64,000 nucleotides of DNA from Enterobacter phage vB_ExiM_F4M1E (OL744216.1), one strand, 5' to 3'; positions 1-59,707 are shown, numbered from the stretch's first letter. Notes: a model not told the origin generated them from the letters alone. Numbers and translations are program-made.

Positions 1-78
1 CGCAAGAAAGCGCCTACGTGATCGGGAAGGGTACGGATCACGCCTCCCACGTGGCACAAAACTTTATTTGCAAAACGC

Positions 79-108
79 TTGACGTGTGGTTATGCCGTCG
101 CCTACAAT
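79..108 (+). promoter_or_regulatory. sigma70-like promoter (TTGACG, 18 bp spacer, TACAAT)
   Basis: -35 ttgacg at 79-84 and -10 tacaat at 103-108, immediately upstream of the ORF starting at 155. Confidence 0.5.
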
Positions 109-154
109 TACGGCATAGACAAACGAAAGCAGACAACCAAACGAGGGTTAAATT

Positions 155-448
155 ATGTTTGAAGTATTCGCCGGAATGTGCTTTTATGCCGCCGCCGCTT
201 TAAAGCAGTGTGATGATTTTGTTGTGGAGTCCTACGACGATCCGCTGACGTGTGAGATCGTGGCGACCGATTACCGCCAGGACACCCGCTGGATTAACCC
301 GGCTTGTATTCCATCGCCAGAAGTCGAACCGATGCCAGAAGGCGAAGAGATTCAAGATCCTGCCGTGGCTGTTACCTCGTTTTTTGTGGATAATCTGGAC
401 GCCGCCGCGCTGGTCCAAATGTACGCAAGCCAGGAGGCCGCACAATGA
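155..448 (+). CDS. hypothetical small early protein (97 aa)
   Basis: ORF directly downstream of the promoter at 79-108; acidic protein. Confidence 0.5.
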   Translation: MFEVFAGMCFYAAAALKQCDDFVVESYDDPLTCEIVATDYRQDTRWINPACIPSPEVEPMPEGEEIQDPAVAVTSFFVDNLDAAALVQMYASQEAAQ

Positions 449-588
449 ACCACAGCCGCAACATTGCAAAGCGCCGCCGCCCTAATTCCAGCGCCGCCAA
501 TGATGAGCGCCGGATCGCTGGTTTCATCGCTTGCGGCTACACCGTACAGCAGGCCCGGCAAATGGTAAAAGCAAAAGGCAGAAAATAA
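445..588 (+). CDS. hypothetical small basic protein (47 aa)
   Basis: ATGA overlap with the upstream stop; aggagg RBS at 432-437; not in the ORF track (<60 aa). Confidence 0.35.
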   Translation: MNHSRNIAKRRRPNSSAANDERRIAGFIACGYTVQQARQMVKAKGRK

Positions 589-591
589 TTG

Positions 592-621
592 TTGACACCG
601 GGCACCGTCCCGGCTTATAAT
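592..621 (+). promoter_or_regulatory. consensus sigma70 promoter with palindromic GC spacer (TTGACA, 18 bp, TATAAT)
   Basis: ttgaca then ccgggcaccgtcccggct then tataat; spacer stem ccggg/cccgg. Confidence 0.65.
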
Positions 622-659
622 TCAGCTACACCAAACAAAACAGGCAAACGAGGCCACAA

Positions 660-839
660 ATGAAATCATCCTTACTTTTCGCCCTGGTAGACATAGTGAT
701 CGGCAATGGTTGCGGTCAACATACCTTCATTGCAAACCGTCCCTATCCGCTCAAATCGTTGCAGGCCGACGCCCGCCTAACCGCCGGGCAGATCCGCCGC
801 TACTTTCGTGAACCACACCCGGCAAAAACTGCAAAATAA
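660..839 (+). CDS. hypothetical small protein (59 aa)
   Basis: ATG about 40 nt downstream of the promoter at 592; MKSSLLFALVDIVIGNG... Confidence 0.4.
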   Translation: MKSSLLFALVDIVIGNGCGQHTFIANRPYPLKSLQADARLTAGQIRRYFREPHPAKTAK

Positions 840-842
840 TTG

Positions 843-872
843 TTGACGCCGGGCACCGCCCCGGCTTATAAT
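843..872 (+). promoter_or_regulatory. consensus sigma70 promoter with palindromic GC spacer
   Basis: ttgacg then ccgggcaccgccccggct then tataat; near-identical to the promoter at 592. Confidence 0.65.
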
Positions 873-902
873 TACCGAACACAAACAAACGAGGCTACAA
901 AA

Positions 903-1202
903 ATGCAACAGGCAAACACTCTTTTCATTCTGGCAAACGTAGCGGATCACGTTGTGGCGTCACTGTCCAACGTGGCGGGCACCGTGCAGATCATTTGCCG
1001 CCATATGGATGACACCGCGCCGAACCGCCTACAAATCAACGTAGACCGTAAAGGGGCCGACTTTGTGATCTCTTATGATGCCATTTACAACGGGCGGCGC
1101 TTTATGCAGGCCAAAAGCGACCCGATCCCGGCTAACTACATTCAGGAGGCGATCGCCGTCCTGGTAAACGACACTATCCCGGCGGGGGCTATGTTACCAT
1201 GA
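903..1202 (+). CDS. hypothetical protein (99 aa)
   Basis: ATG 903 after the promoter at 843; the track ORF 840..1202 has an upstream alternative start. Confidence 0.55.
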   Translation: MQQANTLFILANVADHVVASLSNVAGTVQIICRHMDDTAPNRLQINVDRKGADFVISYDAIYNGRRFMQAKSDPIPANYIQEAIAVLVNDTIPAGAMLP

Positions 1203-1354
1203 ATCCGCATAAACTTTTAATCACCGCCTACCCAAACAAGGCGGATCGCCGTGAAACTTTGGACCGCTTAACCCTGTATTATCAGGAGGCCGGGCACAGT
1301 AAAGCGACGGCCCGCGCCTTGGCTAAAAAACGTTTACGTTTTGGTAAAAATTAG
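1199..1354 (+). CDS. hypothetical small protein (51 aa)
   Basis: ATGA-coupled to the upstream gene; stop tag at 1352-1354. Confidence 0.35.
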   Translation: MNPHKLLITAYPNKADRRETLDRLTLYYQEAGHSKATARALAKKRLRFGKN

Positions 1355-1355
1355 C

Positions 1356-1384
1356 TTGACGCCCGGCCCGAAAGGGCCGATAAT
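1356..1384 (+). promoter_or_regulatory. sigma70 promoter, hairpin spacer (cccggcccgaaagggcc), -10 GATAAT
   Basis: ttgacg, 17 bp palindromic spacer, gataat; followed by the conserved leader catagggcgggg...ccccgc. Confidence 0.6.
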
Positions 1385-1436
1385 CTCTCACATAGGGCGG
1401 GGAATGGTTCCCCGCATTATCTAAGAGGTTATGAAT

Positions 1437-1589
1437 ATGTTTACTTTGATGACTTGGGAACACGAATCAAGCGCCCCTGTCCGCCGGACCTTTGAAAACT
1501 TATGCGCCGCTTATCGCCTGGCGCAAGGCGGTTACTATAAAGCCCAAATCATCGACGAAAATAATATTGTAATGTACGAATTTAAATGA
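1437..1589 (+). CDS. hypothetical small protein (~50 aa)
   Basis: aagagg RBS then ATG; downstream of the promoter at 1356. Confidence 0.35.
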   Translation: MFTLMTWEHESSAPVRRTFENLCAAYRLAQGGYYKAQIIDENNIVMYEFK

Positions 1590-1618
1590 TTGACATCCGG
1601 CCCGAAAGGGCCGATAAT
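1590..1618 (+). promoter_or_regulatory. sigma70 promoter, hairpin spacer, -10 GATAAT
   Basis: ttgaca, tccggcccgaaagggcc (17 bp), gataat. Confidence 0.6.
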
Positions 1619-1654
1619 GACCCCACACCAAACAAAAGAGAGAGAGACCGTAAA

Positions 1655-1861
1655 ATGATTACTATGATTCTTCAAAAGTCCCGCCTGATTGATGTTACCG
1701 TTACCCTGTCCGCTTGCGGTGACACGTCCCGCCGGGCCGATCATTACCAGGTGACCGCTGTTAGTGATCGCGGCGCTGTCCTGCTGTCTGAAGTAACAGA
1801 GCATTTGCACGAGGCTTTTAAAACCTATTCAAAGTGGAAAGGCGACGAAGAAATAAAATAA
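1655..1861 (+). CDS. hypothetical small protein (68 aa)
   Basis: ATG 1655 downstream of the promoter at 1590 with a gagagaga purine run. Confidence 0.5.
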   Translation: MITMILQKSRLIDVTVTLSACGDTSRRADHYQVTAVSDRGAVLLSEVTEHLHEAFKTYSKWKGDEEIK

Positions 1862-1869
1862 AAATCCGC

Positions 1870-1899
1870 TTGACGCCGGGGCCACGTTGGCCCCATAAT
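1870..1899 (+). promoter_or_regulatory. sigma70 promoter, hairpin spacer (ggggccacgttggcccc), -10 CATAAT
   Basis: ttgacg, 18 bp palindromic spacer, cataat. Confidence 0.6.
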
Positions 1900-1933
1900 G
1901 CCACCACACCAAACGAATAAAGAGAATCACAAA

Positions 1934-2188
1934 ATGTTAAAATTCATCAAATCACTTTTCACCCGCACCACCCCGGCTTGCAAGTTGCCACCCCTGGAGG
2001 CTAAAGGCGTGATCGCTCGCAAAGTCTCAGAATTGTTTATCATTTCATTGGTTCACAACGGCGGAGACTGTTACGAAATCATCGAAATGGGCCGCTACAC
2101 TAAAACAGGGTCAAGCCGTGTCCGTTACGGTGAACACCGCGCCCGGAATCATTTTGATTCTGTATGCTGTATGGTGGGTGCAAAATAA
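1934..2188 (+). CDS. hypothetical small protein (84 aa)
   Basis: ATG 1934 downstream of the promoter at 1870. Confidence 0.5.
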   Translation: MLKFIKSLFTRTTPACKLPPLEAKGVIARKVSELFIISLVHNGGDCYEIIEMGRYTKTGSSRVRYGEHRARNHFDSVCCMVGAK

Positions 2189-2191
2189 ACC

Positions 2192-2220
2192 TTGACGGGG
2201 CCAACGTTAGGCCCCATAAT
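2192..2220 (+). promoter_or_regulatory. sigma70 promoter, hairpin spacer (gggccaacgttaggccc), -10 CATAAT
   Basis: ttgacg, 17 bp palindromic spacer, cataat; leader catagggcgacacaacgccgccc follows. Confidence 0.6.
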
Positions 2221-2272
2221 GTAACACATAGGGCGACACAACGCCGCCCACAAACAGAAAAGAGATCGTAAA

Positions 2273-2632
2273 ATGAGCAAATACACCCCGTGGGAACCAA
2301 TGTACAAAATCACCCTGTCCGAGTGCAGCAAAAACGAACTGGATGGAATTGTCCGCGCCGCTACTGCCGTGATCCGTGGGCTTAACTTCAAACGTTTAAC
2401 CTTCAAAGAAGTAAAACAAATTTTTGAAATGCCGGATCACAAGGCCGCTTCCCGCTTGGGGCTTACTGTAACATCGCAAGGGCTTTACAAAGATCACGAC
2501 CTTAAAGGGCCGCACGTGTGGCTTTTAGCTTGCGCCGTGGGCCGCACCATTGCCGACACTATCAAAGAGATGAAAGCGCTACGCGATGACGCAAAAGCCC
2601 GCCGGGCCGCGCTGGAAGTGGCACAAAAATAA
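2273..2632 (+). CDS. hypothetical protein (119 aa)
   Basis: ORF after the promoter at 2192. Confidence 0.6.
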   Translation: MSKYTPWEPMYKITLSECSKNELDGIVRAATAVIRGLNFKRLTFKEVKQIFEMPDHKAASRLGLTVTSQGLYKDHDLKGPHVWLLACAVGRTIADTIKEMKALRDDAKARRAALEVAQK

Positions 2633-2645
2633 TTTAAAAATAAAG

Positions 2646-2675
2646 TTGACGCCGGGAAGCGTTACGGGCTATACT
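2646..2675 (+). promoter_or_regulatory. sigma70 promoter (TTGACG, 18 bp, TATACT)
   Basis: ttgacg, ccgggaagcgttacgggc (partly palindromic), tatact; drives the 25-aa hydrophobic peptide ORF. Confidence 0.5.
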
Positions 2676-2723
2676 CTTTTCATCGGGTCACAACAGACCA
2701 AAACAAACAAAGAGAGAAACAAA

Positions 2724-2801
2724 ATGAGCGTAATCTTCCTGGTATCTGTTTTCGTAGCTATCGCATCTTCTACCGCAATTTGTATCAAACTGGGATACTA
2801 A
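2724..2801 (+). CDS. 25-aa hydrophobic micro-protein (MSVIFLVSVFVAIASSTAICIKLGY)
   Basis: own promoter at 2646; agagagaaa RBS; single predicted TM helix. Confidence 0.35.
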   Translation: MSVIFLVSVFVAIASSTAICIKLGY

Positions 2802-2805
2802 TAAA

Positions 2806-3198
2806 ATGACTACTTTCAACGTTTTAAACTTAAACGCTTTTATCGCGGGTTACATTGAGGCAATGTTTTTTGCAGAGTCCGCCACCGATAGCGACGGCGA
2901 AGAAATCGAAAGTTTAGCCGGGTATGAGTTAAGCGCTGAAGCCCTGGACGCTGCCCGCATGGATTGCGCCCGCTTTATGGATGTTGCGCCGCTGTTACTC
3001 AAAGGGGCAATGTTGGCAGGGGTTGACTACGACCACACCCAGGCAGGCCGGGATCTATGGTTTAGCCGTCAAGGTCACGGCGTAGGATTCTGGGATCGCG
3101 GACTTGGGACGATCGGTGATAAACTTCACGACGTGGCGCAGACTTTCGGATCAAAAAATCTGTTTATCAATGATGCTGGATTTATTGAGGTAGAATAA
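2806..3198 (+). CDS. hypothetical protein (130 aa)
   Basis: ORF, acidic. Confidence 0.55.
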   Translation: MTTFNVLNLNAFIAGYIEAMFFAESATDSDGEEIESLAGYELSAEALDAARMDCARFMDVAPLLLKGAMLAGVDYDHTQAGRDLWFSRQGHGVGFWDRGLGTIGDKLHDVAQTFGSKNLFINDAGFIEVE

Positions 3199-3659
3199 TG
3201 AACCTTACAGATCTGAAGTATTACGATGAATTAACCCCAGCGGCGCAAGCTGAAGCCCGGCGCAACGTTGCCGCCAGTGTGCAGACTCACCACGGGCGGG
3301 AAATCGGAAAGGCGTTTTTTAAATTCCAGCGGGACCCAAACAAGGCGATCAATGACCCGCTACACATCCGCCGGATCGTCAACGGCGGCGAAGCGTGGCG
3401 CAAGATCCGCCAGGAGGGCGACGCCTATCTAATCCGCTTTATCCGGTCCAATAAAGTGATCTTTACTGATTGCGGTGCGTATGTGGCGTATGTGGACGCC
3501 TTCACAATGTTTATTGATGGGTTGGAATACATACCCACAGCCGAACAGCAAAAGACGCTTAGAACGCCTTACATCGACGTTAACGGGCGCGGCCCGGCGT
3601 TTCATAATTGGCTATACCGTATGCACCACAAAATAAAGTTTTTCATGATCCGGGGTTGA
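3198..3659 (+). CDS. hypothetical protein (153 aa)
   Basis: ATGA-coupled ORF. Confidence 0.55.
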   Translation: MNLTDLKYYDELTPAAQAEARRNVAASVQTHHGREIGKAFFKFQRDPNKAINDPLHIRRIVNGGEAWRKIRQEGDAYLIRFIRSNKVIFTDCGAYVAYVDAFTMFIDGLEYIPTAEQQKTLRTPYIDVNGRGPAFHNWLYRMHHKIKFFMIRG

Positions 3660-3684
3660 CACCCGGCGGAATAGGGCCGATAAT
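3656..3684 (+). promoter_or_regulatory. sigma70 promoter, hairpin spacer, -10 GATAAT
   Basis: ttgaca, cccggcggaatagggcc (17 bp), gataat; leader catagggcggggaatggtccccgg follows. Confidence 0.6.
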
Positions 3685-3737
3685 GTCTCTCATAGGGCGG
3701 GGAATGGTCCCCGGCCCAATGACCTGGAGTCAGTACA

Positions 3738-3989
3738 ATGGAAATCAAACACGTAATTTCTGCAAACGTCGCCGTTTTAGGTTCTGTAAGTGAAACCCGT
3801 GTGAGTCTCGCTAAATGGTGCGCCGCTCAAACTTTCGGGAGTTACGGCGAAAAGGTAACAGAGGTTAAGCGCTTGCTTTCCTTTGGTAACGTGGGCCGCA
3901 AGTTGTTAACAGAGGATATCGCCCGCCGGGTTGAGATCCATTATTCACTTGCTCAAATCATCGTAAAAGAGATCGAAAGCGTAATTTAA
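3738..3989 (+). CDS. hypothetical protein (83 aa)
   Basis: ORF after the promoter at 3656. Confidence 0.55.
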   Translation: MEIKHVISANVAVLGSVSETRVSLAKWCAAQTFGSYGEKVTEVKRLLSFGNVGRKLLTEDIARRVEIHYSLAQIIVKEIESVI

Positions 3990-4025
3990 CCCGGCCCGGC
4001 CCCGCAAGGGGCCAACAGAGGACAA

Positions 4026-4250
4026 ATGAGAATGATTATCAAAAACACTTTGGGCAAAACTGATTTTCTGCGCTCGCTGGAGATCGGCAAGCCGCAAGCC
4101 TGGTATTGTAAAAAGCTGGCGCATGATGAAATGAAAGATTTTACAGCCACGTTAACCCGCGTTAAAATCAGCATTACCCAAAAGAAAGCGCTTTTAGTGA
4201 TTGAGGGGCAGATCCCGCAAACCGTGATCATTGTTGAGAGGACCGCATAA
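4026..4250 (+). CDS. hypothetical protein (74 aa)
   Basis: ORF with gaggacaa RBS. Confidence 0.45.
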   Translation: MRMIIKNTLGKTDFLRSLEIGKPQAWYCKKLAHDEMKDFTATLTRVKISITQKKALLVIEGQIPQTVIIVERTA

Positions 4251-4251
4251 A

Positions 4252-4476
4252 ATGGGGGCCAATACTCGCAACCGCTACGGCATAACGCGCCGTTTCGGGG
4301 TCTGCTATATGCTGGCAGATGATCCACAATATCGGGCCTTGCTGGAGGCTTACCAGGTCACCAAACTGGACGCCCAAAAGGGCCGGGCCGAACACGACGC
4401 CCACACCGCCAACATTAAAGCGCTTCACGACTTTTTAGCCGTCGCGGAAAAGCGTCACGACATCCGCCACAATTGA
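4252..4476 (+). CDS. hypothetical protein (74 aa)
   Basis: ATG 4252 with gagagga RBS; the track ORF starts earlier at 4231. Confidence 0.45.
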   Translation: MGANTRNRYGITRRFGVCYMLADDPQYRALLEAYQVTKLDAQKGRAEHDAHTANIKALHDFLAVAEKRHDIRHN

Positions 4477-4486
4477 GGGCCGAACC

Positions 4487-4681
4487 ATGATCACAGCTTC
4501 AGAGATCCGCCAAACGTTAGCCGCCTTGCGTTACCTCCACGCCTTACGCCGGGAAAGTGATCCGACTTATGCCGGGTCATGCCTGGCTAACGATGCCGAA
4601 AACGGGATCGCCACACTGAAAGAATTAAATGATCGCATGAGCGACAGCGACCGATCCGACTTTATCGGGGGCGAAATATGA
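4487..4681 (+). CDS. hypothetical protein (64 aa)
   Basis: ORF with gaggg RBS. Confidence 0.45.
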   Translation: MITASEIRQTLAALRYLHALRRESDPTYAGSCLANDAENGIATLKELNDRMSDSDRSDFIGGEI

Positions 4682-4986
4682 TCGCCATTACGCCAACCGT
4701 TTTAGATTGGTATCGCCAGCAGATCGCGCCGCCGCTGGCTATCTTCAAACAGGCCGAAAGCAAACAGCGCCGGATCTCCATTCATGAGATCATTACGCTT
4801 AACGCTGGGCAGAAAATGAATGTTTCCCGGTCCCATATGGGCAACACGTTAGCGCTTTTAAGTTTACGCCGCAAGCGTCAACGGTTAACCCTGGAATCAC
4901 TCCGCATGATGGGACAGCCGCACCAGGTCACCGGGGACAGGATCGCCAGGGCATGGAACCGGGCAAACAGTCGAAAGGCTGGATGA
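4678..4986 (+). CDS. hypothetical protein (102 aa)
   Basis: ATGA-coupled ORF, basic C-terminus. Confidence 0.45.
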   Translation: MIAITPTVLDWYRQQIAPPLAIFKQAESKQRRISIHEIITLNAGQKMNVSRSHMGNTLALLSLRRKRQRLTLESLRMMGQPHQVTGDRIARAWNRANSRKAG

Positions 4987-5128
4987 ATTAACAGTGTTCA
5001 CAGGGGTTGACTTGTTCGCCCCTTTTTTGTTATCCTTTTGTCATGCGATGGCACCTGATGCAGGGGGAGACAAACACCGGACCTGCCCGCTATTCAGGGA
5101 GGCGGACCGGACCTGGGCCGCGCCGGGC

Positions 5129-5150
5129 AAATGAGAATGGTTATCATTCC
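5129..5150. promoter_or_regulatory. Fur-box-like / AATGAT-ATCATT dyad motif (isolated copy)
   Basis: aaatgagaatggttatcattcc resembles GATAATGATAATCATTATC. Confidence 0.35.
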
Positions 5151-5405
5151 CAACAAAATCAAATACATACTTTAAAACCGTTGTCAAATTTATTTCTTAC
5201 CCCTGTATAAATGTACATGCCCGCCAAACGCTCTAAAACGCGTTTTAAGCCGTTTTGCCCTTCCCCGGTATCCTACACCATAAAAATATAGATCGCCCGA
5301 AATCGGACTTTCGCACTTTTTGTCCTTGCAAACGTGAAATTTTTATGTTAGGCCTGAAGGGCTGAAAGCCGGGTGTACGTTGACAAAACTTTACAAAACT
5401 CCCTA

Positions 5406-5434
5406 TTGACGCCCGGCCCGTTATCCCTGATAAT
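5406..5434 (+). promoter_or_regulatory. sigma70 promoter, -10 GATAAT
   Basis: ttgacg, cccggcccgttatccct (17 bp), gataat; leader cgtagggcggcaatgatgcgacggccc follows; second ttgaca at 5381. Confidence 0.55.
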
Positions 5435-5486
5435 GTATCTCGTAGGGCGGCAATGATGCGACGGCCCACAAAGAGGGGACAGTAAA

Positions 5487-5726
5487 ATGAAAGAAATCAT
5501 GACCTTGGTAAAATCCCGTATGTTACGTGGCGGATTCAACGCATACGCCGACGGCAATATCATTGCCACGGTCGCAAAAGTTACAAAAAATGATAATGAT
5601 TCTCAGTTCGCCGGGCAGTATCGGATCTGTTTTACCCGTGGAAAGTTGCAAGGTAAAACGGCATACGCACCAGATTTTCAAGAGCTTAATGATCGTATTT
5701 GCGCCGTTTTAGATTTTGCAAAATAA
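5487..5726 (+). CDS. hypothetical protein (79 aa)
   Basis: ORF after the promoter at 5406; agagggga RBS. Confidence 0.55.
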   Translation: MKEIMTLVKSRMLRGGFNAYADGNIIATVAKVTKNDNDSQFAGQYRICFTRGKLQGKTAYAPDFQELNDRICAVLDFAK

Positions 5727-5729
5727 ATG

Positions 5730-5758
5730 TTGACGCTGGGGCCGAAAGGCCCCATAAT
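5730..5758 (+). promoter_or_regulatory. sigma70 promoter, hairpin spacer (ctggggccgaaaggccc), -10 CATAAT
   Basis: ttgacg, 17 bp palindromic spacer, cataat. Confidence 0.6.
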
Positions 5759-5803
5759 ACCCACTCAAGCAACAAACCACTAAAAACACTGGAGACCGTA
5801 AAA

Positions 5804-6118
5804 ATGACCAAATCTAAATTTTTCGAAATGCTGGATCGCTACCTGTCAAGCCATAACGAGTGGGCCAAACTGGGCAACGGGTACGACTCATACAAGGCCG
5901 AACAGTTAAAACCTTATGTTTTCCATGAGGACCCGGCGAACCTGGAGAAGTGGAAAGCGAAAGATCCGTCCTATCCTTGGACCGCTCACGCTTCAGGCTT
6001 TACCCTGGCTGATTGTTGGCATGTTGAGGTAATGCAACATAAAACCGCTGAAGCCGCCGAAAAACAGCACGTAATTTTCACCCGCTGGATCGCAGACTAT
6101 CAAAAGGCCCGCGCTTAA
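5804..6118 (+). CDS. hypothetical protein (104 aa)
   Basis: ATG 5804 after the promoter at 5730; ctggagacc RBS. Confidence 0.55.
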   Translation: MTKSKFFEMLDRYLSSHNEWAKLGNGYDSYKAEQLKPYVFHEDPANLEKWKAKDPSYPWTAHASGFTLADCWHVEVMQHKTAEAAEKQHVIFTRWIADYQKARA

Positions 6119-6363
6119 TGTCCCGGCTTTTTAAAATCAATCTTCCATTGTGGGCCGCTTTAGCGGTCCTCATTGCCTTTTCTGGCGATACGGTCAACAA
6201 TTGGATTTTGTCCGCTGTACTTGGACCCGATCAAATGGTCACAACATTTTTAAACGCTTTCGGCGCTACACTGGCAACGGCCCGCCTTGCCTATCGTGGC
6301 AAATCAATAAACCGTTATGATCTGGCGCTATCACTGCCCGCCCTGGTTACCTGCCTAAACTGA
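6118..6363 (+). CDS. hypothetical membrane protein (81 aa)
   Basis: ATGA-coupled; hydrophobic segments. Confidence 0.5.
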   Translation: MSRLFKINLPLWAALAVLIAFSGDTVNNWILSAVLGPDQMVTTFLNAFGATLATARLAYRGKSINRYDLALSLPALVTCLN

Positions 6364-6367
6364 AGAG

Positions 6368-6395
6368 GCCCGCCACCCCGGCGGGCTTTTCTTTT
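6368..6395 (+). terminator. rho-independent terminator
   Basis: gcccgcc-acccc-ggcgggc hairpin followed by ttttcttttg. Confidence 0.7.
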
Positions 6396-6695
6396 GTCCC
6401 AAACGTGGCAAGCCTGGAGGCCCGGCCCGGTATCGGTCCGACTCCCCCAGTCAATCCCCTTATCACTTCCATTTGTGGAAATCAACACTTAATTTTATTC
6501 ACTTTAAAGCGCATAATTGAATAAACGAGGAGCTAACCCACTAACCAGGGTTGAGAGTAGCGGCCCGCATAGGGCCTTACAGCGCGTTTTAGCCCCTATT
6601 GACTTCTATCTGCAAACGTGTATCAAGCCGGATCGGTGAATCATCCATTTTCTTTACATAACTTGACACTATTTATTCATTTATCTGCATAATGC

Positions 6696-6713
6696 TAGAA
6701 TGATTCTCATTTA
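6696..6713. repeat. AATGATTCTCATT motif copy
   Basis: tagaatgattctcattt. Confidence 0.4.
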
Positions 6714-6758
6714 CTATCAATAACTTAACTTTTTATTGACTTCTGACAAAACACGGTT

Positions 6759-6906
6759 TTACGTTCCCACGGATCAAGGGAGGGCGCGCCGTAGGCGCGA
6801 CCAATAGAAAACAGGTAACGGATCACCCCCTTTGCTAACTCGCAAAGGATTGTGCTCACGTTCCCACGGTCAAGGGATGACCGCTATCACCTGTTTTCTA
6901 TTGGTC
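6759..6906. repeat. composite direct-repeat/inverted-repeat element
   Basis: direct repeats cacgttcccacggNtcaaggga at 6759-6781 and 6856-6877; perfect 18-bp inverted repeat gaccaatagaaaacaggt / acctgttttctattggtc at 6800-6817 and 6889-6906; GGCGCGCC palindrome inside. Confidence 0.6.
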
Positions 6907-7165
6907 ATTACGTAGTAATAAAACCGCTATTGTCAAGGGCTTTTTAGTGCCTACAGGCACAAATACGAATTATTCTCATCTGCATAAAGATTGGTTTTAT
7001 CTGCATAAGTACGTAAACAGGCGGACCCGTACAGCGTAGCGGGGGCCGCATAGGCCCTACCGGGCAAGGGCCTTTATTGCTCACAAAACAGCCGAAAGCG
7101 TAGTATTTGCCTGGCAAAATTCGCTCTTCGTGTCAAGCGAAAAATAATTTTTTTTTCTTTTTGCG

Positions 7166-7313
7166 TAAACGATAATGATTCTCATCCGAGAACCATTCTC
7201 AAAGGGCTAATGCGAATCATTCTCATTATCATGCCACAAGGTGAGTGAGACTCATTCTCATCCAGGCCAGTGCTGGCGGGCCTCTCCACGTGTTGGGAAT
7301 GATTATCATTCAC
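7166..7313. promoter_or_regulatory. cluster of >=5 Fur-box-like AATGATTCTCAT(T) repeats
   Basis: gataatgattctcatcc, gagaaccattctc, gcgaatcattctcattatcat, gagactcattctcatcc, gggaatgattatcattcac. Confidence 0.5.
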
Positions 7314-7678
7314 GTCAGTGCGTATAAGGTGTATTATGTTAAATGGGGAAATGTTGGGGGAGGCACACCACGGCCCGGCTGTCAATAAGAGAAGTGTAAA
7401 GATGGGCAAGATGGTAGACATTTTGTGACTTTGATCGCGTAAAGTTAGGGGCTACCGATCTGGATTCAAGATTGAGAGGGAGAGGCTAAGTGATTGATTA
7501 TTAAGGATATTTGGGAAAAATAACAGGTGCCCCTCCCCACCCCTGTTCGCCATGCCTGGCAGCTATATCCACACACTGAGATATTTTTCTGGTTTCTGGG
7601 CAAGAAGGGCCACCCCTGATCGCGTTCTAAAAATTTTGGCGGGAGGGTATTTTGACATAAAAAGAGGGCACAGCGCCT

Positions 7679-7870
7679 TACAGGTGAGCCTCTTCAGGCG
7701 TCCCTTGATATTTGGGCAATGTGGGAATACAGACGGGTACGTCTCTGTGGGAACAGGTATACCCGGCGGGAGAGGGCCTCCCGGACGGGGTATGGCGCTC
7801 GCAGAGTTATCAACAGGTCTGCCTCTTTAGGCAGTGGGTACAAGACAGGTTAGGCTCTTCAGGTCTACCA
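7679..7870. repeat. three copies of ACAGGTnnGCCTCTTyAGG plus TGTGGGAA repeats
   Basis: acaggtgagcctcttcagg at 7679, acaggtctgcctctttagg at 7813, acaggttaggctcttcagg at 7845. Confidence 0.45.
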
Positions 7871-7901
7871 GTGTGGGAAACAAAATTGTGGAGGGAGATA
7901 C

Positions 7902-7925
7902 AAAAATACCGCCCGAAGGCGGTTT
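7902..7925 (-). terminator. rho-independent terminator (ccgcccgaaggcgg family)
   Basis: hairpin accgcccgaaggcggt with an A-run on plus immediately 5'; ends the minus-strand gene stopping at 7924. Confidence 0.6.
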
Positions 7926-8361
7926 ATGGTTGGTATGGATCGTGGTAGTAATCCAGGTGGGACAGAGAGTTTCTGAGCACGGTCATATGGATACCTGTCC
8001 ATTCCGACTGTGTGGTGGGGTAATTGGCAACCCAATCCTGAAGACGTGCTTTCAGGACCGGATACTCAACACCGACCTTACCGTGTTTGGTTCGACACAT
8101 CACAATACTGTGGCACAGTTGTCGATAGGCGGTCTCCCGCTCCAACCTGGCGACATACTCCTCGTTGCCTCTCTTCATACGGGCAATCTCCGCATTGAGT
8201 TTACGGCGCTCCCGGAGGTCAGCGCTCCACAGGTGAGCCACGGTAGGCGCAGTTTGGATGTAAGTGATGTGCCTCTTTGGCGTGGGTCCGTACATAGGTG
8301 TTCCTCTTTGGTATGTTTTGGAATATGTGGGGAGTATACGGGAGTTTTGGGAAGAGGTCAA
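7924..8361 (-). CDS. hypothetical protein (145 aa)
   Basis: ORF at the distal end of the minus-strand block; preferred over the antisense 7834..8424. Confidence 0.45.
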   Translation of the reverse strand: MTSSQNSRILPTYSKTYQRGTPMYGPTPKRHITYIQTAPTVAHLWSADLRERRKLNAEIARMKRGNEEYVARLERETAYRQLCHSIVMCRTKHGKVGVEYPVLKARLQDWVANYPTTQSEWTGIHMTVLRNSLSHLDYYHDPYQP

Positions 8362-8377
8362 GGGCCTTTCGGCCCTT

Positions 8378-8713
8378 TTATACGATTTCGAAGGATTTTC
8401 GGAACAGGTTCATGTGGTCATTGAGGAATACCCATGTGGCACTGTCTCCCTGCTCATAATCGTCGTTGTACACAACCACGACATCATATGGTGGGAATTT
8501 CTCAGCGTATGTGGTGGTCCGGAACCTGTAGACCTGCCCAACCTGGAATCCATGCCCGTTGTGCTCAAGGCACCGGGCAACCCCGAACTCCGGCACCGGG
8601 AAGTAGAGTTGCCTCCACTCGGGCCTCCTGGGCCGGGCCTTCAGGTTCCACCGGGTAGCAAGTTTGCACGGGATTCGACTCATAGGTAGTCCTCTAAAAT
8701 TTGGAGATACCAT
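8378..8713 (-). CDS. hypothetical protein (111 aa)
   Basis: ORF. Confidence 0.45.
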   Translation of the reverse strand: MVSPNFRGLPMSRIPCKLATRWNLKARPRRPEWRQLYFPVPEFGVARCLEHNGHGFQVGQVYRFRTTTYAEKFPPYDVVVVYNDDYEQGDSATWVFLNDHMNLFRKSFEIV

Positions 8714-8937
8714 CCAGACAGGTCCGGGCGTAACGGGTTTATTGGGCCATCATCGTGGATAAGGTAGATGACACCATCTGTGCCCTCGAAGATACGTAGG
8801 CCACAGTCTACCGCCAGATAGCGGATCTCCTTTTGGGTGTACCCATATTGTGGATAGAGCACACCAGTTTTTGGGCAGACCTCCTTACTCATTGGATTCG
8901 GCCCCCGCCTGATAAGCGTCCCACAAATCCTCGACAT
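8680..8937 (-). CDS. hypothetical protein (85 aa)
   Basis: ORF. Confidence 0.45.
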   Translation of the reverse strand: MSRICGTLIRRGPNPMSKEVCPKTGVLYPQYGYTQKEIRYLAVDCGLRIFEGTDGVIYLIHDDGPINPLRPDLSGWYLQILEDYL

Positions 8938-9124
8938 ACTGCTTGTCCGGGTGGTCAGACGGCTCGTACCCGGTAAGGTCCTCGAAGAAGTCGTTGAACT
9001 TGTCTCGCAGGGTCCGGGGCGACCAATCAGGAACCCCGGTATAGTCTAAATCATAAGACATAAAAACTCCTATAGGTTTCGGAAACCGTTGATGACGTGA
9101 TCTCCCAATGCCCCGCCAACCCAC
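8885..9124 (-). CDS. hypothetical acidic protein (79 aa)
   Basis: ORF. Confidence 0.45.
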   Translation of the reverse strand: MGWRGIGRSRHQRFPKPIGVFMSYDLDYTGVPDWSPRTLRDKFNDFFEDLTGYEPSDHPDKQYVEDLWDAYQAGAESNE

Positions 9125-9390
9125 AGTCGATAGAGGTTGTGCTCTCGACGCAGGACCTTTCCGTACACCGACATTCCCGGTTTGAACTCGTCGTACTTGT
9201 AGCCGTCCTCATCCTGATACCAGACACGGATAGTCAGACCCTTTTCCCAGCAGCGGTCCAAGAGGGCCATCTGGTAGGTATGAACATCATTGAGGCCCTC
9301 CTTGAAGATGAGGTAATCGGTATACGAAAACGACGAATGCACGTTGAACCGGGTCGGCGCATCCGACGGATGAAAGTTTACAATATTCAC
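9070..9390 (-). CDS. hypothetical protein (106 aa)
   Basis: ORF. Confidence 0.5.
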   Translation of the reverse strand: MNIVNFHPSDAPTRFNVHSSFSYTDYLIFKEGLNDVHTYQMALLDRCWEKGLTIRVWYQDEDGYKYDEFKPGMSVYGKVLRREHNLYRLWVGGALGDHVINGFRNL

Positions 9391-9426
9391 AGGAACTCCT
9401 TAGTTATCAACAGGTTCGCCACATTT

Positions 9427-9618
9427 CTACAACACCGACGGGGGTGTGTAGTCGCATTCCAGCAAGGCCAAAAGCTGGTTCAGCTTCAGGTGCCCAGTGA
9501 TTACGTGTTTCTCTTCCGACAAATCTTCTTTTGAAGTCAGGAAGACAACGGTGATCGGCAGCGAACGCTCACAGGACTGATAGAAGTGAGTCAGCACTTT
9601 GTCATTTCTCATCAGCAA
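9427..9618 (-). CDS. hypothetical protein (63 aa)
   Basis: ORF. Confidence 0.4.
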   Translation of the reverse strand: MLMRNDKVLTHFYQSCERSLPITVVFLTSKEDLSEEKHVITGHLKLNQLLALLECDYTPPSVL

Positions 9619-9818
9619 TCCCCCAGACGACGCATGAAGCTGGCTACATCATCTTCGTCCGCCGGGCGGACCGTGCAGGTCACCGGAAGGCTGCGGTTCC
9701 AGAAGCGAGCCGCCAGTGCCGCCGTGCGGTGGTTAAATGACAGCAACATAACGTCGCCATTACTGTCAACAACCACGTGGGGTAAGTTGAAAGTTTCTTC
9801 GCTTGGTGTGTAACTCAT
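9612..9818 (-). CDS. hypothetical protein (68 aa)
   Basis: ORF. Confidence 0.4.
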   Translation of the reverse strand: MSYTPSEETFNLPHVVVDSNGDVMLLSFNHRTAALAARFWNRSLPVTCTVRPADEDDVASFMRRLGDC

Positions 9819-10138
9819 TGTTTATCCTCCAATTCCGCCAATCGGGCGGTGTCTCGTGCGATACGTTCTTTGAGCAGGGCAATCTCCCGATCGCGGTGCT
9901 CCTCGTCTGTTGCCAGAGGGTACTCCACAACCAGTCCGGTAGACAGGATCTTCAGTTCGGTACGGTGCCCGTTAGCGTAGTGAATGATGCGGGTCCCAGC
10001 CTTGTACATCTTCTCTAAATCCTTCATAGACCCTCCACAATGGTGCAGTACCCGGCGAAGATGAAGATCGACGCCAGCAGTGCCCAAGACAGCCATGCGT
10101 ACCACGCAGGCCACAGCAGGTAGTCGCAGTTTTCCCAT
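9815..10138 (-). CDS. hypothetical protein (107 aa), coiled-coil C-terminus
   Basis: ORF. Confidence 0.5.
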   Translation of the reverse strand: MGKLRLPAVACVVRMAVLGTAGVDLHLRRVLHHCGGSMKDLEKMYKAGTRIIHYANGHRTELKILSTGLVVEYPLATDEEHRDREIALLKERIARDTARLAELEDKQ

Positions 10139-10157
10139 GCGGCGTTAGGGTTGTCTT

Positions 10158-10343
10158 TCATTCTTGTATTCCTCTCTCCTCCGCTTCCCGCAGAAGCTCT
10201 GCCAGTACGCTTTCCGGACCACCGTCTGACCCCTTACGCTGCCAAGTAACGCTCACCTTAGTAAGCTGGATGTACAGGCAAAGTTGTTCGTCAGACAGGG
10301 CCTTGATCCTTCCCTTCAGTAGTTCCAGTTCTTCGTTTGTCAT
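10158..10343 (-). CDS. hypothetical protein (61 aa)
   Basis: ORF. Confidence 0.4.
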   Translation of the reverse strand: MTNEELELLKGRIKALSDEQLCLYIQLTKVSVTWQRKGSDGGPESVLAELLREAEERGIQE

Positions 10344-10445
10344 AGTTGCTCCCCTCTTCAGTCAATATGCTCAATATACACCCATATGTTTATGCTGTAA
10401 ACATGTTTTGAGGTATTTGTCGAAAAAAGTGCATTTCTTAAACAT

Positions 10446-10464
10446 AAAAACCGCCCGAAGGCGG
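10446..10464 (-). terminator. rho-independent terminator (ccgcccgaaggcgg family)
   Basis: aaaaa then ccgcccgaaggcgg; downstream of the minus gene ending at 10466. Confidence 0.55.
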
Positions 10465-10465
10465 C

Positions 10466-10668
10466 TTATTTGCGGAAGATTTCCACCTTTGTCGGGATGT
10501 AGTGGCCCGGCGGGTTCAGCGGGTGTCGGTAGCAGTCGAAGTCCTCCGGGTTGTCGTTCGACTTCAGGATCGCTTCACGAACAAACGGCAGGCTGCTGAA
10601 CATGCCCCAGTCCACGTCAGTCTGCCCCATCTCTTCTCGCATACTGACGTGGAACAACTGGTAAACGT
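10466..10668 (-). CDS. hypothetical protein (~67 aa)
   Basis: start at the internal Met MKAYVYQLF of track ORF 10466..10771; avoids overlap with the next gene. Confidence 0.4.
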
Positions 10669-10679
10669 ATGCTTTCATA

Positions 10680-11183
10680 TCACTCCCCGTATTTCGCTTT
10701 GAGGCGGGCCAACTGGGCGCGTTCCTCGATCTCCCGACGTTCAGCCGCCTGCTGCTCTGCCTTCTCTGCACGAAGGCGCTGTGCCTCCCGATGGTCTACC
10801 AAACGAGCGTCGTACTTGCGCTTGGCGATGATCTCAGCATCCTCCAGCATCAACTGACGTTCGGCAGAATATTTCTCGTAGTCTTCGTCAGAGATTTCAT
10901 CCACCGCATAAGAAGACCCGAAGTAGCCGTTAATGCCCAGAGTTATGTCCGCCCCGGCGGTAAACTCGTAGTCCTTGTTCAGGCTACGATCCTGGGCCAC
11001 AGTGTCCAGATAGATGGCATGGGCCAGTAACTCAATTGCCTGTTCCCGAGACTGAGTTGACTGAAGAGTCATGTCACTGTCAGTGCGGCCTTCACAGTAG
11101 CCGCCACGGTAGACGGCATCGTTTTCACGGTAAGAAATAATTGTGTACATATTAACCTCCGCAGTATTTGTTAACTGGTTCAC
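10680..11183 (-). CDS. hypothetical protein (167 aa), Glu/Arg-rich coiled-coil tail
   Basis: ORF. Confidence 0.5.
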   Translation of the reverse strand: MNQLTNTAEVNMYTIISYRENDAVYRGGYCEGRTDSDMTLQSTQSREQAIELLAHAIYLDTVAQDRSLNKDYEFTAGADITLGINGYFGSSYAVDEISDEDYEKYSAERQLMLEDAEIIAKRKYDARLVDHREAQRLRAEKAEQQAAERREIEERAQLARLKAKYGE

Positions 11184-11556
11184 CGTTGATGTCCAAATCG
11201 GTGATTACGTGTTGAGGGCCAGTATAGTCCTCTGCCAGTTTCTTTGCAACCCTTTTCGCCTCTTCCAAGGTTTCAAAATCCTTGATGTCTGGGTCGCCAT
11301 GGGCATAATTCTGTTGAACGTACTGCCAGAAAGGCCACCAGAATCCACGATTATACTTCACCCGGAAATACTCAACCACCCGCCCGTTGGCGAAGGTCTT
11401 CACGTTCTTCTCGATCAGGATCTTCATTTCTGTCTCCCACGTGTAAATATTTTGAAGTTTTGTGCAGAAAAGTCCCGGAATTTTGACTTTTACGTGCAAA
11501 AACGGCACATTTTTACCCGATTTGTGCAGAGTACATGAAAATAGGGTTGAAATCAA
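11152..11556 (-). CDS. hypothetical protein (134 aa)
   Basis: ORF. Confidence 0.5.
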   Translation of the reverse strand: MISTLFSCTLHKSGKNVPFLHVKVKIPGLFCTKLQNIYTWETEMKILIEKNVKTFANGRVVEYFRVKYNRGFWWPFWQYVQQNYAHGDPDIKDFETLEEAKRVAKKLAEDYTGPQHVITDLDINGEPVNKYCGG

Positions 11557-11562
11557 CCCTTT

Positions 11563-11778
11563 TCACAGTTTTATGCCTGTCTTGGCCTGCCAAGAGACCT
11601 GGAGGTTGATCTGCTCGATTACGTACTCCAATTGTTCCGGAAATAGCATCGAGAAGAAATCCCTCTCCTCTGGGTCGTCGAGGAAGTCCGGCTCCATGTC
11701 TTCGATGTACTGAACCACCTCTTCCATCGCCAAAAAGGCCACTTTGAAACCTTTGTATTGCAATTCTACCAGCTTCAT
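11563..11778 (-). CDS. hypothetical acidic protein (71 aa)
   Basis: ORF. Confidence 0.45.
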   Translation of the reverse strand: MKLVELQYKGFKVAFLAMEEVVQYIEDMEPDFLDDPEERDFFSMLFPEQLEYVIEQINLQVSWQAKTGIKL

Positions 11779-12062
11779 ACCGCCACAAACCCATCTTCGT
11801 TCATAAGCACGTGATTCGGTGCCCAGAAGTTGTGCCGGGACTCAAGCCACAGGTAGAACCGCCGCTTACTTGACAGCGGATGCGGATCTGTCTCGTAGGA
11901 AACGAGGGCCGTTCGGCCCTTATTCTTCCCACGCAGAATACGCACACGCTGATCCTTTTTCCACTGGCACGGCACCCGTGGAGAGTCGTAGCATTTAGGC
12001 AGACATTCCATGATATGGCCCCTTTCCGCAGAACTTTTCCCAGAGTGCAGAGTCAACACCAT
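11775..12062 (-). CDS. hypothetical protein (95 aa; start may be an internal Met at 12011)
   Basis: ORF. Confidence 0.4.
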   Translation of the reverse strand: MVLTLHSGKSSAERGHIMECLPKCYDSPRVPCQWKKDQRVRILRGKNKGRTALVSYETDPHPLSSKRRFYLWLESRHNFWAPNHVLMNEDGFVAV

Positions 12063-13322: not shown

Positions 13323-14472
13323 AAATAACAAGGCTTGTGTCCAAAGGCACATAGGTATCAACCCTTGTCCCTCCCACACCGGGAAGAGTTCCTGCTGTCC
13401 CTCCTGAGTCCTGCCCTGTTCCGTAGAGGTTTCCGTCAATCAGCAGGTAAGATACTGAGTAATTTGATCTCATGGAGTGATAATCACCCTGTAAGGTGCT
13501 CGAAGGCATCGCCGTAAAAGAGTACCTCTGTGCCTGGGAAGGTCCCGTCCCTTGACTTTGACCACTGTTTGTCCCTGTGTAGTAAAGCACCCCTGTGACC
13601 GGATGGGTTACCCTTGCCGAGTAAAGACCTGTATAAATTACAGGCACGCCCTTGCTCCGATCGGATATGTTCTGCCACACCGCCGTCGGGTTTCGGTAAC
13701 TTGCATCACCAGTGGAACCTGTCCCCAGACTTCCTCCAAAGTGACGACCTTGGACATAAGTGGCATAAACAGACCCTGTATCCACAATCATAAAGACCCC
13801 AGTGTGTCCCGGGAAGAAGTCTTTTGTGATGAGGGATTGCAGTGCCCATGTACTAACTGCACCGCTGATAGACCCAGCCTGTCCGTAGTCAGACGACCCT
13901 GCCACATAAAAATGGCCACTTTTTCTGAGGAGGTAGGAGGTATCTGTGGAACCTTGGTCAAATGCAATTTTCTCAACGTCAGTGAAGTCATTCCTCATGG
14001 TCAGGGTTCTGACTTGATCGGCATTACCTTGTCCCAAACCTCCACTGTTATTCCTTCCACACATGGCGTACTGCCCATCTGTAAAGACCACAGCAAGAGA
14101 CCTGAACCCCAGAGAAACCTCTTTGATAGACAACCCTTCCGGATAGGTCATGTACTCAGAGACATCAGTCAGCCCTTGTATAACGGAGCCAAGGGCAGTG
14201 GGGAACATCTCGTTTGAACCCACGAACATCCACCTGCCGTCCTTCATCCTCATCAGCACTTGACGGTGAGCCATCCAAAAGTCTTCAACCCCTCCGGCGA
14301 GGAGGGTCCAAGTCTTGACAGCACCTCCAGTACCGCTGATATACAGGTCACCAATAACGTACAAATTGCCAGAATTTGCAAGTGCCCCTATTCCTGTCGA
14401 GGATGTCCCGATCTTTAGGATATTCCCCCCGGGGACAGGAGTTTTACCCCCTGCCAGCATAAGTTCAATCAT
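13321..14472 (-). CDS. RCC1-like repeat (beta-propeller) protein, paralog A
   Basis: repeated G-x-x-G-(Q)-x-G motifs (SGGLGQGN, YGQAGS, GGSLGTGS); N-terminus MIELMLAGGKTPVPGG matches the neighbour; ggagga SD before ATG 14472. Confidence 0.55.
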   Translation of the reverse strand: MIELMLAGGKTPVPGGNILKIGTSSTGIGALANSGNLYVIGDLYISGTGGAVKTWTLLAGGVEDFWMAHRQVLMRMKDGRWMFVGSNEMFPTALGSVIQGLTDVSEYMTYPEGLSIKEVSLGFRSLAVVFTDGQYAMCGRNNSGGLGQGNADQVRTLTMRNDFTDVEKIAFDQGSTDTSYLLRKSGHFYVAGSSDYGQAGSISGAVSTWALQSLITKDFFPGHTGVFMIVDTGSVYATYVQGRHFGGSLGTGSTGDASYRNPTAVWQNISDRSKGVPVIYTGLYSARVTHPVTGVLYYTGTNSGQSQGTGPSQAQRYSFTAMPSSTLQGDYHSMRSNYSVSYLLIDGNLYGTGQDSGGTAGTLPGVGGTRVDTYVPLDTSLVI

Positions 14473-58764: not shown

Positions 58765-58840
58765 GCTGGATTAGCTCAGTAGGTAGAGCGCCTCACTTGT
58801 AATGAGGATGTCGCGGGTTCGATTCCTGCATCCAGCACCA
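58765..58840 (+). tRNA. tRNA-Thr (anticodon TGT)
   Basis: hand-folded cloverleaf: acceptor gctggat/atccagc, D arm gctcagtaggtagagc, anticodon loop cttgtaa, T loop ttcgatt, encoded CCA. Confidence 0.8.
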
Positions 58841-58846
58841 GATCAT

Positions 58847-58923
58847 GCAACGTTGCCGGAGTCTGGTAACGGCTCTCGCTGCAAACGAGATGATCACTGG
58901 TTCGAATCCAGTACGTTGCTCCA
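58847..58923 (+). tRNA. tRNA-Cys (anticodon GCA)
   Basis: acceptor gcaacgt/acgttgc, anticodon loop ctgcaaa, T loop ttcgaat, CCA. Confidence 0.75.
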
Positions 58924-58924
58924 A

Positions 58925-59001
58925 GCGCCTTTAGTCCAATTGGTAGAGGCACTACATTCAAAATGTAGGGGTTCCCAGTTCGAATCTGGGAAGGCGCACC
59001 A
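58925..59001 (+). tRNA. class-I tRNA with anticodon CAA (Leu-decoding by anticodon; isotype uncertain)
   Basis: acceptor gcgcctt/aaggcgc, anticodon stem ctaca/tgtag, loop ttcaaaa, 5-nt variable loop, A73, CCA. Confidence 0.6.
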
Positions 59002-59010
59002 AATTATCAT

Positions 59011-59046
59011 GTAACCTATTGACATAGTGTAATTATGCTGTTAAGA
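59011..59046 (+). promoter_or_regulatory. candidate promoter for the embedded AT-hook gene
   Basis: ttgaca, 17 nt, taagat. Confidence 0.35.
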
Positions 59047-59073
59047 TGAATACACTAACTCAATGGGGGCATT

Positions 59074-59448: not shown

Positions 59449-59454
59449 TTGGAA

Positions 59455-59476
59455 GGCTCCCGAAGGAGCCTTTATT
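59455..59476 (+). terminator. rho-independent terminator
   Basis: ggctcc-cgaa-ggagcc then tttatt. Confidence 0.65.
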
Positions 59477-59613
59477 AGAAGTTCTCTTTTGACGGGCACT
59501 TGTTAACGACCCGCAGCATGGCGTCGGTGTACAACGGAGTTTGATGGCGAGGAAGGTCTATAGGGATCAGCGCAGATCCTTGGATATCAGGTGAGCCGTA
59601 CAAAAGAGAATTT

Positions 59614-59701: not shown

Positions 59702-59707
59702 AATTTT

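Follow-up and report, generated by a model that had tools for sequence, protein, structure and literature searches.

Early gene block and promoter array

We analyzed a 64,000-nucleotide stretch of Enterobacter phage vB_ExiM_F4M1E (OL744216.1), referred to in full as the window, and in particular an array of eleven promoters at positions 79–5758 and the GC-rich hairpins embedded in them. A megablast search with positions 1–6400 identified the relatives of the window as Certrevirus (Vequintavirinae) genomes with 86–92% identity. These include the Cronobacter phages CR3 and CR8 (88% identity over ~90% of the query), Klebsiella phage KaOmega (92% identity), and the Pectobacterium phages P7_Pc, phiTE, and CB7. 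The start of the window corresponds in CR3 to the distal end of a plus-strand block of ~50 small hypothetical genes. All 20 block genes in the window either match PHROGs of unknown function or have no match. A preliminary description made from the sequence placed a promoter before each small gene, which is overstated: the ~20 genes share 11 promoters, and the genes at 445–588, 1199–1354, 2806–3659, 4026–4986, and 6118–6363 have none of their own.

A consensus scan recovered all eleven near-consensus sigma70 promoters of that description, every one on the plus strand, with 10–12 of 12 hexamer positions matching and spacers of 17–18 nt. Their -35 hexamers start at 79, 592, 843, 1356, 1590, 1870, 2192, 2646, 3656, 5406, and 5730. 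The strict pattern TTGACR-N18/19-ATAAT has 10 matches in the 64 kb, compared to 0.13 expected from shuffles, and nine of these lie within 592–5758. The -10 form (T/G/C)ATAAT holds for nine promoters and fails for P79 (TACAAT) and P2646 (TATACT). Each spacer was folded and compared to 300 shuffles of itself: six fold significantly better than shuffled, two are marginal, and three do not. The five spacer sequences quoted earlier are correct, and the statement that the spacer is always a perfect or near-perfect GC hairpin stands for the first six, is borderline for two, and does not hold for P79, P2646, and P5406. The promoters, their hairpins, and the terminator that closes the block are as follows.

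P79, 79–118, plus strand: -35 TTGACG at 79–84 and -10 TACAAT at 103–108; no spacer hairpin (p = 0.23)
P79 stem, 90–98 with 110–118, plus strand: 9-bp stem enclosing the -10 hexamer; right arm ends in CATAG, predicted start A115
P592, 592–621, plus strand: TTGACA-18-TATAAT; hairpin CCGGG-CACCGT-CCCGG at 598–613 (p = 0.077); terminator-like in a terminator scan
P843, 843–872, plus strand: TTGACG-18-TATAAT; hairpin GCCGGG-CACCGC-CCCGGC at 848–865, followed by TTATAATT (p = 0.017); terminator-like in the scan
P1356, 1356–1415, plus strand: TTGACG-17-GATAAT; hairpin CGGCCC-GAAA-GGGCCG at 1364–1379 (p = 0/300), its final base being the first base of the -10 hexamer; leader hairpin at 1397–1415
P1590, 1590–1618, plus strand: TTGACA-17-GATAAT; hairpin identical to that of P1356, at 1598–1613 (p = 0/300); -35 directly adjoins the TGA stop of the upstream gene
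P1870, 1870–1899, plus strand: TTGACG-18-CATAAT; hairpin GGGGCCA-CGT-TGGCCCC at 1878–1894 (p = 0.017)
P2192, 2192–2249, plus strand: TTGACG-17-CATAAT; hairpin GGGGCC-AACGTTA-GGCCCC at 2197–2215 (p = 0/300); leader hairpin at 2231–2249
P2646, 2646–2675, plus strand: TTGACG-18-TATACT; no convincing spacer hairpin (p = 0.34); shares TTGACGCCGGG with P843 and P1870
P3656, 3656–3717, plus strand: TTGACA-17-GATAAT; decayed hairpin at 3664–3679 (p = 0.077); TGA stop of gene 3198–3659 within the -35 hexamer; leader hairpin at 3695–3717
P5406, 5406–5434, plus strand: TTGACG-17-GATAAT; left arm CGGCCC present, right arm lost, no hairpin; no gene directly upstream (~400 nt non-coding)
P5730, 5730–5758, plus strand: TTGACG-17-CATAAT; hairpin GGGGCC-GAAA-GGCCCC at 5738–5753 (p = 0/300)
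Terminator, 6364–6390, plus strand: canonical intrinsic terminator closing the block, with an 11-bp stem and then a T-run of a kind that the promoter hairpins lack

The promoters are parts of a recurrent intergenic unit, termed a cassette here, and the window copies sort into three sequence families. The 25 nt upstream of the -35 hexamer are 56–84% A+T, and the upstream stop codon ends -4 to +13 nt from the -35, its TGA lying inside TTGAC in two cases. The A of a conserved CATAG, ~7 nt past the -10 hexamer, is the predicted transcription start and lies downstream of the stem. An ATG preceded by a GAGG- or GGAG-like Shine-Dalgarno sequence follows 30–53 nt beyond the -10. GC-hairpin cassettes are restricted to the early block within the window, and in CR3 all but two are inside the corresponding block. 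In an Rfam search of positions 1–12000 (E ≤ 1), the only hits were two below threshold, and both fall on the terminator at 6364–6390.

Pairing and gene exchange among related genomes

Cassettes were compared across eight genomes and fall into two types: the S type has its stem-loop in the -35/-10 spacer, and the T type has a stem around the -10 hexamer. Spacer palindromy, on which the preliminary description had staked its reading, is present in the related phages: 70 of 102 GC-rich spacers beat their shuffles (p ≤ 0.05), compared to 10 of 78 among the A/T-richer ones, counts that are not independent as cassette copies are related by descent. Stems are 4–8 bp in the S type and 8–12 bp in the T type. 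The 52 distinct S-type cassettes have 28 loops of 3–10 nt, and their 17 stem strings amount to at least 8 different complementary stems. Among the stems are GGGGCC/GGCCCC, GGGGCG/CGCCCC, GGGTC/GACCC, GGCCCC/GGGGCC, CGGCCC/GGGCCG, GCCGGG(A)/(T)CCCGGC, and GGATCT/AGGTCC.

Compensatory change is also found at orthologous promoters. P2192 in the window has GGGGCC/GGCCCC where its counterpart in P7_Pc has GGGTC/GACCC, with the leader unchanged, and the pair GGGGCG/CGCCCC and GGGGCC/GGCCCC likewise occurs at orthologous sites. Phages can differ in the hairpin family that precedes one and the same gene; upstream of the gene starting ATGAAATCA, the window, KaOmega, and phiTE each have a different hairpin. 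T-type arms were anchored on the invariant TATG and CATAG motifs, since a MAFFT alignment had put the inner pairs out of register. Across 14 T-type copies, 93.5% of cells are paired, compared to 79.9% in shuffles and 35–46% when the arms are slid, and six of 11 pairs are altered on both sides, a number reached in 0 of 500 shuffles. The stem of P79 (90–118), which the preliminary description missed, is of this class, whose members covary in the relatives and also occur in the T4-like phage RB49. Pairing is thus shown to be under selection while the sequence changes, as that description had proposed from the palindromes of the window.

The design GGGGCC...GGCCCC-CATAAT also occurs, led by TTGACA, once each in two IMG/VR contigs (L010, at 5558; L014, at 1650) that have 44–45% G+C and no nucleotide similarity to CR3. 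Because these contigs carry it, the design is not confined to one lineage.

Differences in gene content between the relatives have their edges in the cassettes. In phiTE, window positions 853–2637 are missing and the crossover lies in TTGACGCCGGG: the sequence is window-like up to the -35 of P843 and P2646-like from TTGACGCCGGG on. CB7 lacks 1384–1590, with the crossover inside a 29-nt cassette common to P1356 and P1590, and also 1880–2627, with the crossover between P1870 and P2646. The genes at 2273–2632 and 5487–5726, each between two cassettes, are replaced or have diverged beyond recognition in several relatives. Synteny block ends are concentrated in the same places, with 18 of 47 in the 15% of sequence that runs from 12 nt upstream of the -35 to the next ATG (P value = 9e-5) and 11 of 47 in the 9% that forms the cassette core (P value = 0.003), in comparisons that are not independent of each other. 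These breakpoints show the repeated cassettes to be crossover sites, by which the genes between them are deleted, inserted, or swapped.

Some leaders contain a further stem-loop that begins ~4–6 nt into the predicted transcript. Four had been proposed; those of P1356 (z = -1.9), P2192 (z = -2.4), and P3656 (z = -1.7) are convincing, and that of P5406 is weak (z = -0.8). The P2192-type leader covaries in relatives, with 87% of cells paired compared to 71% in shuffles and three pairs altered on both sides. A stem-loop near the 5' end of an mRNA is a classic stabilizer, and the leader hairpins may have this role. The P2192 leader hairpin (2231–2249) contains, here and in several relatives, an A·C mismatch that would be G·U on the antisense strand, and its minus-strand version was flagged as terminator-like by the scan. 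Mimicry of a CRISPR repeat or of ToxI by the leader hairpins was considered from a reading of the sequences only and rejected, as the arm order does not fit.

Candidate roles of the hairpins

The two strands of the hairpins are not equivalent. T-type stems have 22 G·U pairs on the sense strand, 11 of them internal, compared to three on the antisense strand. In the S type, 12 of 24 tetraloops are GNRA when read on the sense strand, where they are combined with 6–7 different stems, and none is GNRA when read on the antisense one. Such signals argue for folding of the sense-strand RNA or of non-template DNA rather than for a symmetric DNA element. A raw excess of antisense G·T pairs in the S type (28 versus 5) was set aside as uninformative, since it comes from pairs at the stem ends, where the bases of TTGAC and ATAAT are fixed. 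Hairpin cassettes also occur on the opposite strand, in phiTE (L007, 14714, minus strand) and SSBI34 (L006, 9230, minus strand), with G·U pairs in their own sense; they face a ~0.9-kb non-coding region upstream of the block and may drive a non-coding RNA.

S-type stems are closely fitted to the -10 hexamer. In 34 of 52 cassettes, stem and hexamer overlap by one base, the last of the stem and the first of the hexamer, with any slack confined to the -35 side. The first hexamer base is C or G in 34 of the 35 cassettes where it pairs and T in 11 of the 17 where it does not. By this abutment and choice of base, the stem is held against the A/U-rich (U)AUAAU at the expense of the consensus T. The S type is laid out like a terminator, in which the -10 element takes the place of the weak RNA-DNA hybrid.

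We think it probable that the window elements are composite intergenic cassettes of the promoter-early stem-loop (PeSL) type, in which a promoter and a terminator-like stem-loop are combined, and that they also serve as recombination sites; this reading was absent from the roles listed in the preliminary description. In the 70–100 nt that separate one small early gene of unknown function from the next, each cassette begins with an A/T-rich, UP-like tract containing the upstream stop codon; then come the near-consensus sigma70 promoter and the GC stem-loop, an A/C-rich leader that in some cases has its own stem-loop close to the 5' end, and finally a Shine-Dalgarno sequence with a start codon. 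Because the cassette's own transcript is predicted to start downstream of the stem, the hairpin would form only in read-through RNA from the upstream gene, and it would be placed in the spacer because sigma70 reads few bases there. Together with the weakly pairing (U)AUAAU of the -10 element, it would attenuate or end read-through or give the upstream message a protected 3' end, so that each early gene would be expressed mainly from its own promoter. By our analysis, the hairpins could therefore insulate early genes by attenuating or terminating read-through, or at least set a protected 3' end. The hairpin was lost in P5406, the sole cassette without a directly upstream gene, which is a single case.

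Several observations weigh against this reading, and in particular against termination. The 8 nt after S-type stems have a mean of 2.55 T, only P592 and P843 of the 11 sites passed the terminator scan, and the cassettes overall do not have the five or more U in eight nucleotides directly after a GC hairpin that mark an intrinsic terminator. T-type stems are followed by AGACAAAC, and because this contains no U tract, canonical intrinsic termination cannot explain the T type. The terminators annotated in phiTE and P7_Pc are all at places other than the spacer hairpins. Elsewhere in Certrevirus genomes, sigma70-like promoters adjoin upstream genes with no hairpin between them. Of 207 internal pairs in S-type stems, 204 are Watson-Crick, so the strand argument for this type is carried by the loops only, and the shared descent of the copies applies to all of the counts. 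Termination is something we infer for Certrevirus cassettes; literature searches found no transcript maps for Vequintavirinae.

The poor fit of the T type to canonical termination makes a post-transcriptional variant the serious rival, if a rather unlikely one. The hairpins would then act only as 3' exonuclease barriers or as defined processed ends of the upstream message in a polycistronic early RNA, similar to intercistronic REP-type hairpins. The tails after the stems are U-poor, or without any U tract in the T type, sense-strand RNA signals fit this variant as well as termination, and the A/C-rich unstructured leaders are plausible endonuclease entry sites. A mere exonuclease block would not need the strict abutment of S-type stems to an A/U-rich -10, however, and in RB49 the spacer stem-loop PeSL211/210 strongly lowered expression of a downstream lacZ reporter, about as much as rrnB T1 (PMC2839356). 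Processing by RNase III, as in the T7 early region, is a further RNA-level role and one that the preliminary description had raised for the leaders. It would suit intercistronic hairpins on the sense strand, but E. coli RNase III needs roughly two helical turns, a duplex of ~20 bp or more, and the stems reach 12 bp at most, which makes this role barely credible. It is also very improbable that the hairpin is a passenger without its own function, carried along as a repeated promoter is propagated through duplication and gene conversion. The three sequence families in the window, the evident conversion and recombination between cassettes, and 3–4 decayed copies are in line with such spread. A passenger would not be expected to keep many different stems complementary, with compensatory changes at orthologous sites and significant T-type covariation, or to recur with the same design in unrelated phages (RB49 and the IMG/VR contigs).

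DNA-level roles are disfavored. The palindromes lie exactly in the core promoter, where a dimeric regulator from the phage or the host might use them as an operator, or where they might form a supercoiling-driven cruciform that breaks the -35/-10 geometry, and both a dyad-binding factor and cruciform formation had been proposed. Horwitz and Loeb reportedly found in 1988 that engineered promoters with palindromic spacers were switched off by cruciform extrusion. Inverted repeats are also enriched in E. coli promoter regions (PMC6060812). One sequence-specific dimer is poorly suited by at least eight unrelated stems, loops of 3–10 nt, and a shifting register, and the operator-like dyad of this genome is a different, fixed 7-1-7 motif at other places. 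GNRA loops and G·U pairs are specific to one strand, and a G·T pair is an A·C mismatch on the other strand, which weakens a cruciform; short arms of 5–7 bp made only of G and C, moreover, extrude poorly. We regard these roles as unlikely. Two related proposals are also improbable: that hairpins in DNA or at the polymerase tune early promoters and, separately, that the cassettes are a module moving between phage families. Transient folding of the non-template strand, which in the T type leaves the -10 hexamer in the loop, or extrusion that depends on supercoiling might modulate early promoters or switch them off. Near-identical S and T designs in RB49 (Straboviridae), Vequintavirinae, and sporadic unrelated contigs raise the alternative to convergence that the cassettes could be a regulatory module that travels between phage families and takes genes along.

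The dyad is a conserved 15-bp motif, (aaa)TGAGAATnATTCTCA, with 7-1-7 geometry and 9–10 copies, compared to 0.32 expected, all within 4–7.3 kb (4027, 5132, 5591, 6695, 6964, and a cluster at 7170–7308). Five copies are clustered at the junction with minus-strand genes, and one is 2 nt past the -10 of an A/T-rich promoter at 6663, an operator position. The positions are conserved in the relatives, where four further copies form a second cluster upstream of the cassette block; the motif was also located at 80152–80248 in CR3 (L004) and 14352–14447 in phiTE (L007). The dyad differs at two symmetric positions from the 7-1-7 Fur box, and the E. coli 19-bp Fur consensus has no match at ≤3 mismatches. 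TGAGAATnATTCTCA is probably the operator of some regulator.

Other features of the window include additional promoter-like sites. The A/T-rich site at 6663–6692 (TTGACA-19-CATAAT) has no hairpin, is in a non-coding stretch beyond the terminator at 6364–6390, and is nearly base-for-base identical in CR3, P7_Pc, KaOmega, phiTE, CB7, and CR9. A second promoter type is on the minus strand at 49440, 47720, and 33976 (TTGACA-N16-TATAAT/TATACT). It lacks a hairpin, has TG immediately upstream of the -10, and is kept in CR3 at 134122, 132740, and 118598. The ~370 nt of non-coding DNA at 5035–5400, before P5406, is kept in KaOmega, CR3, P7_Pc, and CR9 and has no Rfam match; within it are a single dyad copy and, at 5381, a tandem TTGACA. 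It is bounded by a terminator-like GGGG-N12-CCCC-T6 at 5003–5028, which was seen by eye and not flagged by the terminator scan. Directly after P2646, positions 2724–2801 encode a strongly hydrophobic 25-codon open reading frame (MSVIFLVSVFVAIASSTAICIKLGY) with a good Shine-Dalgarno sequence and no PHROG match. A cluster of 18 tRNA genes is on the plus strand at 58765–61460, as in CR3.

Comparison with known systems

The cassettes share partial features with several known elements. Like intrinsic terminators, they have a GC-rich stem of 5–7 bp, often a GNRA tetraloop, a position just past a stop codon, and an A/U-rich stretch after the stem; unlike them, they have no U-run, and the true terminator of the block at 6364–6390 looks quite different. 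With lambdoid morons they have in common single small genes flanked by their own transcription signals. The flanking signals of the cassettes differ in being repeated, homologous, and themselves crossover sites, and the authors who described PeSLs draw the same distinction from morons (PMC2839356). The preliminary description had compared the array to the strong promoters of T5-like phages. The pre-early and early promoters of T5, also a lytic phage, are likewise strong, close to the sigma70 consensus, and preceded by A/T-rich tracts, but the phage studied here is a Certrevirus and has no genome relationship to T5. Embedded hairpins are not a known feature of T5 promoters.

Certrevirus promoters have been described with the consensus AAAA(N3-4)TGTTGAC(N17-19)TATAAT at 13 sites in CB7, 21 in CR3, 21 in CR8, and 13 in CR9 (Buttimer et al. 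2020, PMC7344957). This set is the same array as in the window, concentrated in the block of short hypothetical genes. The words stem-loop, hairpin, and palindrome do not occur in the text of that paper, and neither the embedded structure nor a role in recombination is described there for these promoters.

The closest match is to the PeSL cassettes of the T4-like phages RB49/phi1, PST/T4, and nt-1/KVP40 (Arbiol et al. 2010, PMC2839356; Comeau et al. 2014, PMC4122927). PeSLs have a strong sigma70-like promoter, an A/T-rich upstream tract with an upstream stop codon, and a Shine-Dalgarno sequence and ATG at the 3' end, and they cluster in hyperplastic regions among ORFans (PMC2839356; PMC4122927). 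In RB49 and phi1, the stem-loop is mostly between the -35 and -10 or overlaps the -10 (PMC2839356). Recombination between PeSLs yields deletions and mini-circles (PMC2839356; PMC4122927). Both types can be read directly in RB49 at 105–135 kb, the S type as TTGACAggggatcaccgatccccTATACT, which includes PeSL211/210 itself, and the T type as TTGACAccggatcggggatatagCATAATatccccATCgaaacg.

The window cassettes agree with PeSLs in nearly every component: a near-consensus sigma70 promoter, an A/T-rich tract with an upstream stop, a stem-loop of a G-run and a C-run, a Shine-Dalgarno sequence with a start codon, clustering among small genes of unknown function in a variable region, and indel junctions inside cassettes. 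Leaders are also similar, CATAGACAAACGAAA in the window compared to CATACCGAAACGAAC in RB49. A spacer hairpin is found at seven window sites (six with p ≤ 0.017, P592 with p = 0.077) and an enclosing stem at P79; the exceptions are P2646 and P5406, with no promoter hairpin, and P3656, where it is decayed. The differences are in host genome and detail. The window genome belongs to Vequintavirinae (Certrevirus), with ~50% G+C, and not to Straboviridae. Its stems are pure G/C (GGGGCC/GGCCCC and others) where PeSLs have GGGGATC/GATCCCC, and they often recruit the first base of the -10 hexamer. For RB49 and phi1, both terminator activity and mini-circles have been demonstrated; these are candidate properties of the Certrevirus cassettes.

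Literature searches, including a full-text search for PeSL, found no report of these elements outside T4-like phages, and the window thus extends PeSL-type cassettes beyond that group. No new regulatory principle is revealed. The wider distribution suggests a general solution among large lytic enterobacterial phages, in which compact signals insulate tiny early genes and let them swap. For annotation, hairpins inside sigma70 spacers should not be dismissed because a U-run is missing. The cassettes also mark the exact places of exchange among Certrevirus early genes, which likely encode host-takeover and anti-defense factors. The set described here is a new Vequintavirinae instance of an already known promoter/stem-loop recombination cassette.

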